A stretch of DNA of 44,053 bases from a virus. Lineage: Duplodnaviria > Heunggongvirae > Uroviricota > Caudoviricetes. The position numbers and the translations under genes are program-made. Where the stretch lies: positions 1 through 44,053 of the IMG/VR virus record IMGVR_UViG_2597489870_000002. The stretch is one strand, 5' to 3'. The notes under the pieces were generated by a model that was given only the letters and a program-made list of their open reading frames with translations, was not told where the DNA came from and searched no databases. Shown one piece after another: positions 5,699 to 40,865 of the stretch; positions within the stretch are counted from its first letter, which is position 1, and each line of letters opens with the position of its first letter.

Positions 5699-5776
5699 TT
5701 ACCGTTGAGGTAATGATTATGCGTATTTGGTTTGGTGTCAATAGATATGAGTTAAAAAAATTACCCTTAAGGTAAT
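5699..5776 (-). promoter_or_regulatory. Leftward early promoter with two operator palindromes (OL-like)
   Basis: Sites TTACCGTTGAGGTAAT (5699-5714) and TTACCCTTAAGGTAAT (5761-5776) flank a minus-strand TTGACA -35 (rc of 5736-5741) and TAATCA -10. Confidence 0.6.
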
Positions 5777-5788
5777 TGTGCAGGCAAT

Positions 5789-5810
5789 AAAAAAGCCGCC
5801 AGAAGGCGGC
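5789..5810 (-). terminator. Rho-independent terminator after repressor gene
   Basis: GCCGCC-AGAA-GGCGGC hairpin followed on minus strand by a 6-U tract. Confidence 0.7.
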
Positions 5811-5832
5811 TTACTTACTGAAAAATATGATT

Positions 5833-6417
5833 TTATTGTTTGTTTTTTTCGTTCTGGTTGATGACAAATTCAATGTAACTTTCGATCTTTGCTTTCTCGG
5901 TTTCGGGTAACAATGCGTAGCGCGAGCGGTCATAGTTGATGGTCGCAGGGTCGTGCGGGTGAATCAGTAATTCATAGCCGTGACGCCCGAATGCGGATGC
6001 AACATTCTCCAGGGTGGAAATGGAAACGCTGACCTCATTGTTTAACAGGCGGCTGATTGTCACCTGGGCGACGCCGGATGCGCGGTGAAGTTTTCCCTGT
6101 GTTGAAAGGTCGCGGCTTTCGCTCATCCAGCGTTCCAGGTTGTGAGCCGCCAGCTGACCTATATCGCTCGGGCCGACAGGCTGAAAACCTTCCTGAGAAA
6201 GCGAGCGATCGATATCAAGCCAGTTACGGGGTTTATTGGCGGCAGCTTCAATTTTTCGCGCAACCTGGTCGCCGATAACCTTCTTGCCAAGAGCCCAGCG
6301 GTTTACCAGATTTGCCTGAGTTCCAAGTTTTTCTGCCATCCGCGTCTGAACACCATTGAATTCACGGTCGATCAAGTCGTTGAGATTTTGCCTGCGGACG
6401 TCCTGGATACTTTTCAT
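5833..6417 (-). CDS. CI-like prophage repressor (HTH-XRE), no peptidase domain evident
   Basis: 194 aa; N-terminal HTH (GVQTRMAEKLGTQANLVNRWALGKK) and a second HTH-like segment (ASGVAQVTISRLLNNE); divergent from a cro-like gene across an operator region; no S24 Ser/Lys peptidase motifs seen. Confidence 0.75.
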   Translation of the reverse strand: MKSIQDVRRQNLNDLIDREFNGVQTRMAEKLGTQANLVNRWALGKKVIGDQVARKIEAAANKPRNWLDIDRSLSQEGFQPVGPSDIGQLAAHNLERWMSESRDLSTQGKLHRASGVAQVTISRLLNNEVSVSISTLENVASAFGRHGYELLIHPHDPATINYDRSRYALLPETEKAKIESYIEFVINQNEKNKQ

Positions 6418-6472
6418 TTTCTGGAAAATCGCCTCATATATGAATCAGTAGATGATTCAATTTAAAGCAATA

Positions 6473-6536
6473 TTACCCAACAGGTAAATGCACCCCATAG
6501 GTAACTATCCTTGATTTTTGTTACCTTATGGGTGAA
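6473..6536. promoter_or_regulatory. Immunity-region operator cluster (OR-like) between repressor and cro-like genes
   Basis: Three spaced sites: TTACCCAACAGGTAAA (6473-6488), degenerate GCACCCCATAGGTAAC (6490-6505), TTACCTTATGGGTGAA (6521-6536); TTGATT -35-like hexamer at 6511-6516. Confidence 0.65.
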
Positions 6537-6571
6537 TATTTATTATCTGAAATAAATATCAGGCAATAGCT

Positions 6572-6802
6572 ATGAGCGATAACGGACATTTCGATTTCAA
6601 AAAGCACTGGCTTGCACTTACTCCGGATGAGCGTGAAGCCTTCGCACAGGAAGCCGGAACGACGAGTCACTATATCCAGACTCACTTAACAGGTAAGCGC
6701 AAAATGCCAGGTAAGGTATTGATGAATGGGCTTTTTAAAGCCTGTAAAACAAGACAATGGCTGCGCTCAAAAGCAGAACTGGCATACTTCTTCTACTCAT
6801 GA
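6572..6802 (+). CDS. Cro-like small DNA-binding regulator
   Basis: 76 aa, divergent from repressor; HTH-like segment; position equivalent to lambda cro. Confidence 0.55.
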   Translation: MSDNGHFDFKKHWLALTPDEREAFAQEAGTTSHYIQTHLTGKRKMPGKVLMNGLFKACKTRQWLRSKAELAYFFYS

Positions 6803-37374: not shown

Positions 37375-37721
37375 TGATATCTCTCCCTGCAGGTTCGCGT
37401 ATCTGGCTGGTTGCAGGTATCACCGATATGCGAAATGGCTTTAACGGCCTGGCATCAAAAGTTCAGAACGTCCTGAAGGATGACCCGTTCTCCGGACACC
37501 TGTTCATCTTCCGCGGACGCCGGGGTGACCAGATAAAAGTGTTGTGGGCTGACAGTGACGGACTGTGCCTCTTCACCAAACGCCTGGAGCGGGGCCGCTT
37601 CGTCTGGCCAGTCACCCGTGACGGCAAGGTGCACCTTACTCCGGCTCAGTTATCCATGCTTCTTGAAGGTATCAACTGGAAGCACCCGAAACGAACGGAA
37701 CGCGCTGGAATCCGCATATAA
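37374..37721 (+). CDS. tnpB: IS66-family accessory protein TnpB (Orf2)
   Basis: 115 aa; conserved IS66 Orf2 pattern (MISLPAGSRIWLVAGITDMRNGFNGLA). Confidence 0.85.
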   Translation: MISLPAGSRIWLVAGITDMRNGFNGLASKVQNVLKDDPFSGHLFIFRGRRGDQIKVLWADSDGLCLFTKRLERGRFVWPVTRDGKVHLTPAQLSMLLEGINWKHPKRTERAGIRI

Positions 37722-37740
37722 CCCGTTGTAAAGTGAGGAT

Positions 37741-39312
37741 ATGGACACCTCACTTGCTCATGAGAACGCCCGCCTGCGGGCACTGTTGCAGACGCAACAG
37801 GACACCATCCGCCAGATGGCTGAATACAACCGCCTGCTCTCACAGCGGGTGGCGGCTTATGCTTCCGAAATCAACCGGCTGAAGGCGCTGGTTGCGAAAC
37901 TGCAACGTATGCAGTTCGGTAAAAGCTCAGAAAAACTTCGTGCAAAAACCGAACGGCAGATACAGGAAGCACAGGAGCGAATCAGCGCACTTCAGGAAGA
38001 AATGGCGGAAACGCTGGGTGAGCAATATGACCCGGTACTGCCATCCGCCCTGCGCCAGTCTTCAGCCCGTAAACCGTTACCGGCCTCACTTCCCCGTGAA
38101 ACCCGGGTTATCCGGCCGGAAGAGGAATGCTGTCCTGCCTGTGGTGGTGAACTCAGTTCTCTGGGATGTGATGTGTCAGAGCAACTGGAGCTTATCAGCA
38201 GCGCCTTTAAGGTTATCGAAACACAACGTCCGAAACAGGCCTGTTGCCGGTGCGACCATATCGTGCAGGCACCAGTACCTTCAAAACCCATTGCACGCAG
38301 TTATGCCGGAGCGGGGCTTCTGGCCCATGTTGTCACCGGGAAATATGCAGACCATCTGCCGTTATACCGCCAGTCAGAAATATACCGTCGTCAGGGAGTG
38401 GAGCTGAGCCGTGCCACACTGGGGCGCTGGACAGGTGCTGTTGCTGAACTGCTGGAGCCGCTGTATGACGTCCTGCGCCAGTATGTGCTGATGCCCGGTA
38501 AAGTCCATGCTGATGATATCCCCGTCCCGGTCCAGGAGCCGGGCAGCGGTAAAACCCGGACAGCCCGGCTGTGGGTCTACGTCCGTGATGACCGTAACGC
38601 CGGTTCACAGATGCCCCCGGCGGTCTGGTTCGCGTACAGTCCGGACCGGAAAGGTATCCATCCACAAAATCACCTGGCCGGTTACAGCGGTGTGCTTCAG
38701 GCCGATGCTTACGGTGGTTACCGGGCGTTATACGAATCCGGCAGAATAACGGAAGCCGCGTGTATGGCTCATGCCCGGAGAAAAATCCACGATGTGCATG
38801 CAAGAGCGCCCACCTACATCACCACGGAAGCCCTGCAGCGTATCGGTGAACTGTATGCCATCGAGGCAGAGGTCCGGGGCTGTTCAGCAGAACAGCGTCT
38901 GGCGGCAAGAAAAGCCAGAGCCGCGCCACTGATGCAGTCACTGTATGACTGGATACAGCAACAGATGAAAACACTGTCGCGTCACTCAGATACGGCAAAA
39001 GCGTTCGCATACCTGCTGAAACAGTGGGATGCACTGAACGTGTACTGCAGTAATGGCTGGGTGGAAATCGACAACAACATCGCAGAGAACGCCTTACGGG
39101 GAGTGGCCGTAGGCCGGAAAAACTGGATGTTCGCGGGTTCCGACAGCGGTGGTGAACATGCGGCGGTGTTGTACTCGCTGATCGGCACATGCCGTCTGAA
39201 CAATGTGGAGCCAGAAAAGTGGCTGCGTTACGTCATTGAACATATCCAGGACTGGCCGGCAAACCGGGTACGCGATCTGTTGCCCTGGAAAGTTGATCTG
39301 AGCTCTCAGTAA
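37741..39312 (+). CDS. tnpC: IS66-family transposase TnpC
   Basis: 523 aa; N-terminal leucine-zipper-like region, Cys cluster CPACGG...CCRCDH, DDE-type core. Confidence 0.85.
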
Positions 39313-39342
39313 ATATCAATACGGTTCTGACGAGTCGCTTAC

Positions 39343-39350
39343 CTATTAGC
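39343..39350. repeat. Target-site duplication, right copy (CTATTAGC)
   Basis: Identical to 36636-36643. Confidence 0.8.
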
Positions 39351-40836
39351 AGATGATATAGTTATATTTAATGGTAATGGAGTGAAATGGAGACGTCTAT
39401 TTTTTACTGGTGAAGTAACTGTATTCGACGCTGGTTATACAGGCTCTGGCGACATTGCTCAATATATAAACAAAATAAATTCAGCAGGATATGACTGCGT
39501 TATTCCATGCTCAGGTGATTTTTCGAGTGCTATTGCAATAGATGTAAGCAAGGGCAGCGTAAGGGGGGTAAATAAATGCATACTTACCGAGATTCCAGGC
39601 GTATCTGGAGATTATGCGCTGACGATTGTTAACTCAAATACAGATTATGCTGACCGTGATGCAATTAATGCTACAGCTATCATTGACGGAGTAGCATTTA
39701 ATTTCATGGGCACCAAAAAAGTTGGTTTGGGAGGGGTAGGTACTGGGGATCTTTCAGAGTTGCGGATCAGTAACGTGGGTATGATTGGTTCCGCTGGTGT
39801 AGAATTCCTGGAAAATTCATATCGTTTGATGTTCGATAAATTTGCTATATCGAGAAGCTTTACCAACACTATCATTTTTAACTCGCCAGCAAATTCTGGT
39901 GAGGTTATTAAATTCAGTCACGGTTGGATGGTTGATAATGGTGGACCGCTAACATTTAATAACGGTCAATTTATTTTTGACTCATGCTCAATGCCTGCCG
40001 GGAAGAAAGTGGGTTATTTAGAGCCAAGTGTAATTATGCATGGCAACGCTCACGTTGTTTATGCTAACGGTAATGTCGAATTCCAGCCCGGGCAGAGCTT
40101 TGTAGCCTTTGTTGTGGATGGCAGTTCAAGGCTGTCAATCAAGGACACCACCATACTTACGCCTACTGGTTATTCAGCCATACCAATAATCGCAAATGAT
40201 GATGGGGTTGTGTCACTGACAAACTGCTCTCTTCCATTATATGACCAGAAGGATCTGGCTGCTGGCGCTGCTACTCGTCAAGTGATTGGTGGAAATAGTA
40301 AGAAGGTTATCTCCCGTGGATGCTACCCTCGGGCAGGTTTTATAACATCCAACTGGGATAAGGGTAATATAGTTAGTCCATTTATCAACGCGCTAAGTAA
40401 TGGTAGTGGTCAGTTCTCAAACTATTCCAACTGGGTTTTGGCACAAAAAGGTACAGGTGTCGTAACTGCGGGTACTGATACGGATGTCCCTAACACTGTT
40501 ATGTTTTCCAGATCACTGTATGTGAATATTCCATCGGTTGGGGCTGCTGCTGATTTTTATCAGGAATGCTTAGAATGCGAGCCAGGGCGGTATTTCCAGT
40601 TAGGTTTCTGGGCTAAAAATCAAGTTACAACAATTTCTGGAATTGAATTTTTTGATAAAGAAGGTAACTCAGTACAAGGTAAAGGAACATTTACAATTCC
40701 AACTGGTTCTACATTTAATTTCTACGCATTAATAGATGTTGTTCCTCCTGGTGCAAGTAAGGTTAGGATTGGATTTGATGTATCAGGATCGGTTGGTTCT
40801 CTTCATATCCATAATGCTATTTATGGATTGATATAA
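39351..40836 (+). pseudogene. Tailspike C-terminal fragment (beta-helix receptor-binding part)
   Basis: Continues in frame with 35832-36643 once the IS and one duplication copy are removed, restoring a 765-aa protein; Gly/Asn/Ser/Thr-rich repetitive beta-type sequence. Confidence 0.7.
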
Positions 40837-40849
40837 ACACTAAATTTCC

Positions 40850-40865
40850 TTACCTTTAAGGTAAA
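40850..40865. promoter_or_regulatory. Operator palindrome upstream of lysis cassette
   Basis: TTACCTTTAAGGTAAA; half-site GGTAAT at 40885-40890; ATATGGTT at 40901-40908. Confidence 0.5.

Follow-up and report, generated by a model that had tools for sequence, protein, structure and literature searches.

In the published switch of the Salmonella phage SPC32H, the repressor Rep reportedly stays uncleaved and is taken off by Ant, an antirepressor under LexA control. The record of the related phage epsilon15 (RefSeq NC_004775.2; Kropinski et al. 2007) carries seven features labelled 'protein_bind, repressor, lysogeny', one before each of terS, gp3 and the tail fibre, three at the left operator (OL) and one at nin, and their sequence is a 17-bp palindrome, ATTACC-N5-GGTAAT. 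Because that record marks the motif at seven dispersed places, its dispersed distribution had already been seen and interpreted. Here we analyse the same palindrome in a prophage in the IMG/VR virus record IMGVR_UViG_2597489870_000002, a stretch of 44,053 nucleotides to which we refer as the window. We believe that the palindromes are probably operators of the prophage's own Rep, such that each operon would be repressed directly and released by Ant. The arrangement is a new example of the design that was already annotated in epsilon15.

Secondary sources describe Rep as reading palindromic DNA as a tetramer (PMC9638917). According to these sources, one dyad is read by two DNA-binding domains from different Rep dimers, there is a likeness between the C-terminal domain of Rep and the tetramerisation domains that serve looping in Rco and p53, and the mechanism of repression by Rep 'has not been extensively characterized' (PMC9638917; PMC9986798). 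The ZX5 paper reports that repressor overexpression cuts holin and endolysin mRNA by >99.9%, which bears on direct repression indirectly.

The window is the reverse complement of positions 2839786-2883838 of the chromosome of enterotoxigenic Escherichia coli (ETEC) H10407 (NC_017633.1), with 100% identity. The prophage is integrated at the 3' end of guaA, and the right end of the window also carries host yfgI and yfgH. A first-pass annotation of the sequence had reasoned from lambda-type phages, but the prophage is an epsilon15/phiV10-like podovirus of the genus Uetakevirus, with an SPC32H-type Rep/Ant switch. Large parts of it are ~90% identical to phages PAS61, phiv142-3, TL-2011b and phiV10, and identity is 80-87% to the Salmonella phages SPN1S/SPC32H, to epsilon15 and to the Enterobacter phages Tyrion and BUCT554. 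Part of the prophage is matched in about 570 of 5,426 complete E. coli genomes.

The first-pass annotation had listed 15 copies of a 16-bp pattern. All 15 are present where it placed them and the repeat is real, but the pattern was off-centre (the true site is 17 bp long and begins one base earlier) and a copy at 12592-12608, beside the one at 12574, had been overlooked. This brings the count inside the window to 16, and one more copy, the 17th, lies just beyond it, 41-57 bp upstream of int. From the aligned copies the fuller form is ATTACCt-N3-aGGTAAT, in which positions A4, C5, G13 and T14 do not vary at all and C6/G12 differ in one copy. We searched the window with the earlier pattern, allowing up to two mismatches, and compared the result with 100 shuffles. 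The search gave 32 strand-hits (corresponding to the 16 sites) vs 1.9 expected, or about one site by chance, and the highest count in any shuffle was 6. The repeated palindrome is real. A wider scan of the prophage, of 200 kb sampled from E. coli K-12 and of relatives found strong enrichment in the prophage and chance level in the host. The K-12 sample held no exact match and a single one-mismatch match, and at a position weight matrix (PWM) score of at least 16 there were 14 sites in the window vs 1 in those 200 kb.

Only 2,903 bases of the window (6.6%) are non-coding, and they contain all 16 window sites (P about 1e-19). The non-coding share was computed with a gene list that we checked against the Prokaryotic Genome Annotation Pipeline (PGAP), the exception being PGAP's long terS, which covers both terS copies; with the list used here, the earlier statement that every copy is intergenic holds. 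Eleven of the 14 gaps of at least 100 bp contain at least one palindrome. The sites are symmetric dyads without orientation, all 16 mark starts of transcription units, and 11 of them lie outside the immunity region.

The placement of the copies at the early promoters is what one would expect of a repressor. At the leftward promoter PL (5713-5741, - strand; TTGACA, 17-nt spacer, AATCAT), the -35 is invariant and the -10, of the form (A/G)AT(C/T)AT, shares its final two bases with the first two of operator OL1 (5698-5714; GTTACCGTTGAGGTAAT), which overlaps -10/+1. OL2 (5760-5776) lies 62 bp upstream of OL1, immediately past the rep terminator. The nin-region promoter Pnin (8838-8866, + strand; TTGATT, 17-nt spacer, TTTAAT), which we located from the sequence and the alignment, is built like PL, with its -10/+1 overlapped by a downstream operator at 8865-8881 and a partner operator 62 bp away at 8803-8819. 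At the right operator (OR), three copies lie between the divergent rep and cro and overlap the rightward promoter (PR) and the repressor maintenance promoter (PRM). OR3 (6472-6488) covers the putative PRM -35 (TTTACC) and spacer. OR2 (6489-6505; TGCACCCCATAGGTAAC) abuts OR3 one site upstream of it and is degenerate here, though strong in the Salmonella phages. OR1 (6520-6536) sits in the spacer of PR, whose -35, TTGATT, is at 6511-6516. Finally, a leftward promoter at 34544-34515 (TTGATT, 18-nt spacer, TATCAT) has its -10/+1 overlapped by the operator at 34500-34516. At PL, PR, PRM, Pnin and 34544-34515 the predicted operators are placed as is classical for repression. A spacing of 62 bp corresponds to about six helical turns and would fit a single tetramer on both operators.

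The remaining copies stand at the starts of other units. One whose left half is degenerate (6857-6873) lies past the cro terminator and before the gp40/dnaT/P operon. The first terS operator (12574-12590), which is an annotated repressor site in epsilon15, follows a strong terminator at 12537-12556; the second, a weak one (12592-12608), ends 2 nt before the terS ATG at 12611. The virion-operon copy, upstream of gp3/portal (15882-15898), and the copy midway between the divergent ant promoter and tail-fibre promoter (35712-35728) are also annotated in epsilon15. Another copy (33460-33476) lies between a Bro-N gene and the next leftward genes, the copy with the best score (34593-34609) is 93 bp away from 34500 and stands 19 bp ahead of the open reading frame (ORF) 34629, and the last (40849-40865) is upstream of the lysis cassette. 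Terminators had been reported just before many of the copies. We agree for those preceding 5760, 6857 and 12574, but the one at about 8776 is weak, with a 4-bp stem and a T-run, yet it is conserved. The unit labels given earlier also needed some correction: the sites called accessory really flank a module like the immI operon of phage P1, an IS66 element disrupts the tail-fibre gene, and at terS the copies lie over the ribosome-binding region.

The immI-like module consists of the RNAs isrK and C4 and a Bro-N gene, and it is a secondary immunity module like that of P1. Rfam detected a C4 antisense RNA at 34282-34369 (- strand, 78.6 bits) and the Hfq-binding RNA isrK at 34388-34464 (- strand, 73 bits), directly upstream of the Bro-N antirepressor-type gene (33541-34233, - strand). 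Since the operators at 34500 and 34593 flank the module, this second antirepressor-type module would also be operator-controlled, as in P1.

The proteins of the switch are homologues of those of SPC32H. The 194-aa product of rep (5833-6417, - strand), an HTH_3 / SPC32H-type protein, matches the SPC32H repressor (PDB 5D50_A) with an E-value of 4e-42, and the product of ant (35379-35636, - strand) matches SPC32H Ant (PDB 5D50_E) with an E-value of 2e-47. A perfect LexA box, CTGTATATTTATACAG, lies at 35658-35673, 21 nt upstream of ant. It is conserved in all relatives, and for that reason we believe that induction proceeds via antirepression and not via repressor cleavage. [quoted passage not shown] The cro-like gene (6572-6802, + strand) encodes a 76-aa protein with a highly conserved helix-turn-helix (HTH; phrog_35) that is nearly invariant among relatives.

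To follow the sites across relatives we used nine genomes, the window prophage and eight reference genomes, with the sites in the latter found by PWM scan. Each of the eight has 12-16 strong sites in matching places: upstream of int, the OL pair, the OR triplet, the post-cro terminator, the nin pair, the terS pair, gp3/portal, ant/tail fibre and the lysis cassette. The 62-bp spacing of both the OL pair and the nin pair is exact in all nine. We collected 80 IMG/VR contigs via the portal protein, and in 79 of them the copy before the portal operon is present at an unchanged distance, as are the terS and nin copies (the exception has no upstream DNA). Six enterobacterial prophages with a Rep 41-75% identical, in Superficieibacter, Erwinia, Klebsiella, Citrobacter and Scandinavium, share the layout. 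The locus is like epsilon15 and SPC32H in having the identical 17-bp motif, orthologous positions at terS, gp3/portal, the tail fibre, OL and nin, homologous Rep, Cro and Ant, and a LexA box at ant; it is unlike epsilon15 in its extra copies around the immI-like module. The epsilon15 record leaves unmarked OR, the post-cro site, the lysis site, the int site and the second nin site. A text search of the literature for the motif sequence returned primer sequences only.

Every palindrome-bearing genome encodes the N-terminal Rep helix (A/Q)NLVNRW, and five loci with a different Rep helix have no palindromes. Rep helix and motif are the same throughout the 9 + 80 + 6 loci, and the motif is lacking only in N-terminal homologues that are very distant and do not belong to the group. 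This co-occurrence is consistent with Rep as the binder, if only weakly so. The first-pass annotation had proposed that one DNA-binding protein addresses the whole genome. The OL and OR positions, the orthologous sites in about 95 genomes, the single repressor family and the epsilon15 annotation all speak for that proposal, but at the late copies binding is a prediction. Taking these results together, the palindrome is very probably the binding site of Rep.

We can picture the switch as follows. In a Rep tetramer the N-terminal HTH domains would pair up on a dyad, and the Cro-like protein probably shares the same sites. With operators in every promoter region, each operon would be kept off directly. 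Four promoters (PL, PR, Pnin and the immI-like one) would each have an operator acting from the -10/+1 or the spacer and a second acting from upstream on the same helix face, and at PL and Pnin a single tetramer may hold both of the 62-bp-spaced operators. The replication, virion, tail-fibre and lysis units would each rely on a lone operator 20-52 bp upstream of a second dyad that stands in for the -35. There Rep might hinder an upstream contact or activator, loop to other operators or block read-through. LexA-controlled Ant would then strip the Rep tetramers, and all units would be freed together.

The second dyad had been seen in part before. An element (A/T)ATKTGGTT had been noted near several of the sites, and it is indeed real and recurrent there, but it is not a simple 9-mer: it forms the right half of a longer, imperfect dyad of 14 bp, AACCATATATGGTT. 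The pattern CA[TA]ATNNGGTT has 7 matches in the window vs 0.8 expected. At up to two mismatches, AACCATATATGGTT has five window copies, while shuffles give 1.9 even at up to three. Four of the copies, which we call L-boxes, are on the + strand at the post-cro promoter (6878-6891; AACCAAATGTGGTT), the virion-operon promoter (15936-15949; AATCATATGTGGTT), the tail-fibre promoter (35754-35767; ATCCATATGTGGTT) and the lysis promoter (40895-40908; ACTCATATATGGTT, with perfect AACCATATATGGTT copies in phiV10 and Tyrion). The fifth is an L-box-like dyad in the immI-like module (34543-34556; AACCGTATTTGGTT), which overlaps the -35 of promoter 34544-34515 and extends upstream of it. In the nine-genome alignments the dyad is conserved at the post-cro, portal, tail-fibre and lysis promoters, all without a recognisable -35 and with -10-like hexamers 0-10 bp downstream of the dyad. 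Weaker versions occur in the PL and Pnin spacers of some genomes. The operator centre is upstream of the dyad centre by 19.5 bp (post-cro), 52.5 bp (portal), 40.5 bp (tail fibre) and 43.5-44.5 bp (lysis). These distances are near whole helical turns and are kept even though the DNA in between has diverged. We considered whether the second element could be a sigma-54, MerR-type, DnaA-box or CRP site; judged from the sequence, the spacing fits none of them. The dyad is unannotated in the records. It points to a further regulator of late transcription in epsilon15-like phages, and together with the far-upstream operators at late promoters it is the modest new part of this work.

Several observations weigh against direct repression of every operon by Rep. 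At three promoters (portal, tail fibre and lysis) the centre of the palindrome is at about -67 to -79 from the presumed start (the starts are guesses), which is no occlusion position, so simple promoter occlusion is not evident there. We found no convincing promoter alongside the terS copies. If the late promoters require an early-encoded activator, Rep sites would be redundant there, and their conservation hints at an additional role. In addition, as a control for co-variation of repressor and site within the genus, we looked through the 9 reference genomes, the 80 loci from IMG/VR and the 6 genome loci for a heteroimmune Uetakevirus member and found none.

These late positions also give rise to the alternative that survives best, namely that the late copies serve mainly the lytic programme, with the Cro-like protein or low-occupancy Rep working from about 70 bp upstream, either in the manner of a class-I-type activator or as an architectural factor, and that repression is limited to OL and OR together with Pnin and the promoter of the immI-like module. 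The operator centres at the three late promoters, the operator-dyad distances conserved near whole turns where the intervening sequence has diverged, and the extreme conservation of Cro would all suit such a role. However, the late positions are guesses from presumed starts, the same motif is plainly placed for repression at the early promoters, Cro on this site is an assumption, and four distances make for weak statistics. We consider this alternative unlikely. Also possible, though less likely than not, is a two-dyad code at the lytic promoters, in which a phage factor binds AACCATATATGGTT, activates late and damps early transcription, and is counteracted by Rep upstream on the same face.

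Candidates for such a factor are the Cro-like protein and a conserved 112-aa 'transcriptional regulator' (phrog_536) encoded at 12169-12507 (+ strand), the last early gene before terS. The N-terminus of the 112-aa protein looks beta-alpha-alpha-like, six of its Cys are invariant, and its AlphaFold model is poor, with a predicted local distance difference test (pLDDT) score of 55. It has no Pfam or NCBIfam match; homologues occur in N15 (gp46), phiKO2, ZF40 and phages of Yersinia, Vibrio and Aeromonas. As the binder of the dyad it is unsupported, given that N15, which encodes gp46, lacks a dyad of this kind and has a Q-type late activator of its own.

Direct repression by Rep also has to be weighed against the idea that the palindromes are primarily recombination or module-boundary 17-mers for cassette exchange among related phages. 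In comparisons of the window with the eight relatives, 33 of 189 homology-block ends lie within 60 bp of a palindrome centre, vs 3.6% expected. The virion block starts exactly at 15880-15883 in seven of the eight comparisons, and other blocks start or end at 40898, 12535-12564 and further operator positions. However, block ends probably pile up at palindromes because conserved operons begin with them, which is expected anyway when a conserved operon starts with its regulatory region. The pile-up is best seen as a by-product. Exchange would leave unexplained the OL/OR geometry, the -10 overlap and the fixed 62-bp pairs, and we think it quite improbable as the primary function.

That a host transcription factor is the binder is more improbable still. 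Nothing specific favours it, beyond host LexA acting on this prophage; the motif is at chance level in the K-12 sample, and it travels with the Rep family over Escherichia, Salmonella, Klebsiella, Citrobacter, Enterobacter, Erwinia and Superficieibacter prophages. Least probable of all are RNA or DNA hairpins (terminators or processing sites): stems of 5-9 bp at -1 to -7 kcal/mol are possible and 40847-40867 scored as terminator-like in a scan, but the stems are A+T-rich and mostly without a T-run, genuine G+C-rich terminators adjoin them, and with a conserved ACC/GGT core none of the 26 deviations from the consensus is compensated on the opposite arm, which speaks against this role and argues that the palindromes are read by a protein, sequence-specifically.

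The first-pass annotation had presented the scattered operators as a departure from known phages. Besides being annotated in epsilon15, the design is known from P1, L5-type mycobacteriophages and phiC31. The late promoters of P1 carry a dyad in place of the -35. They require a phage factor and are Lpa-dependent, and the C1 repressor of P1 acts at scattered operators that include the immI operon with its C4 antisense RNA and antirepressor (PMC8198154). The prophage resembles P1 in having one repressor, genome-scattered operators and an operator at an immI-type module. In contrast, the P1 operator is an asymmetric 17-bp site and C1 is unrelated, whereas here the operator is a perfect dyad and Rep an HTH tetramer; no Lpa homologue was identified in this prophage.

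In cluster A mycobacteriophages, L5 gp71 silences the whole prophage through more than 20 stoperators in promoters and short intergenic spaces (PMC9283540). Stoperators are asymmetric 13-mers that are read by a monomer, are oriented with transcription and act on elongation, while the sites here are symmetric and located at promoters. The terS pair and the post-terminator copies could nonetheless be a block on read-through. The phiC31 repressor binds conserved inverted repeats (CIRs), which are 17-bp palindromes in many intergenic places, often beside terminators and promoters. Host, repressor family and promoter type are all different from those here. With lambda, the prophage shares a tripartite OR that separates the divergent repressor and cro genes. 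In both, one operator falls within the PR spacer, another covers the PRM -35, and there are cooperative pairs. Unlike here, lambda operators are confined to the immunity region and its late genes are controlled by antitermination; in this prophage each operon has a terminator, an operator and a promoter.

If Rep does act in this way, a widespread group of E. coli and Salmonella prophages, O-antigen-converting ones included, would do without a lambda cascade. Each operon would be silenced directly by means of about 17 copies of one operator, with a single antirepressor-driven release. The group would offer a compact, easily tested system for genome-wide repression by one tetramer. In annotation, the operator sites may also help to locate promoters and to tell where genes truly start. 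For example, the terS start looks mis-called: the PGAP and PAS61 calls span the terminator at 12537-12556 and both operators (12529-12611 region). A start at ATG 12611, after GGTGG, is more likely, since the long call covers a strong terminator and terS of epsilon15 and TL-2011b starts past the sites.

We also noted some features of the prophage apart from the operators. An IS66-family element at 36697-39312 (+ strand), with tnpA, tnpB and an ISCro1-like transposase in the PGAP annotation, splits the tail-fibre gene, and the 5' part of that gene (35832-36516) carries a pseudogene annotation. With its tail fibre broken in this way, the prophage probably does not make infectious particles. The last two ORFs of the window (42983-44053, - strand) are host yfgI and yfgH; the TL-2011b phage record includes this host flank too, under the labels 'DUF5384 family protein' and 'DNA methyltransferase'. 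The 360-bp gap 5' of the virion operon holds a tRNA-Arg gene (anticodon TCT) at 15542-15618 (- strand), which was found by ARAGORN, Rfam and PGAP. Within the early-left operon, 2559-2858 (- strand) encodes a homologue of the PerC-family transcriptional activators, a kind of protein that in pathogenic E. coli can switch on virulence regulators of the host. Positions 7519-7562 (- strand), which lie within the DnaT-like gene (7169-7984), hold two tandem units of TGGGATCATTCAACATCCCG followed by TTTTTGGG, spaced 24 bp apart, and these repeats could be replication-origin iterons.

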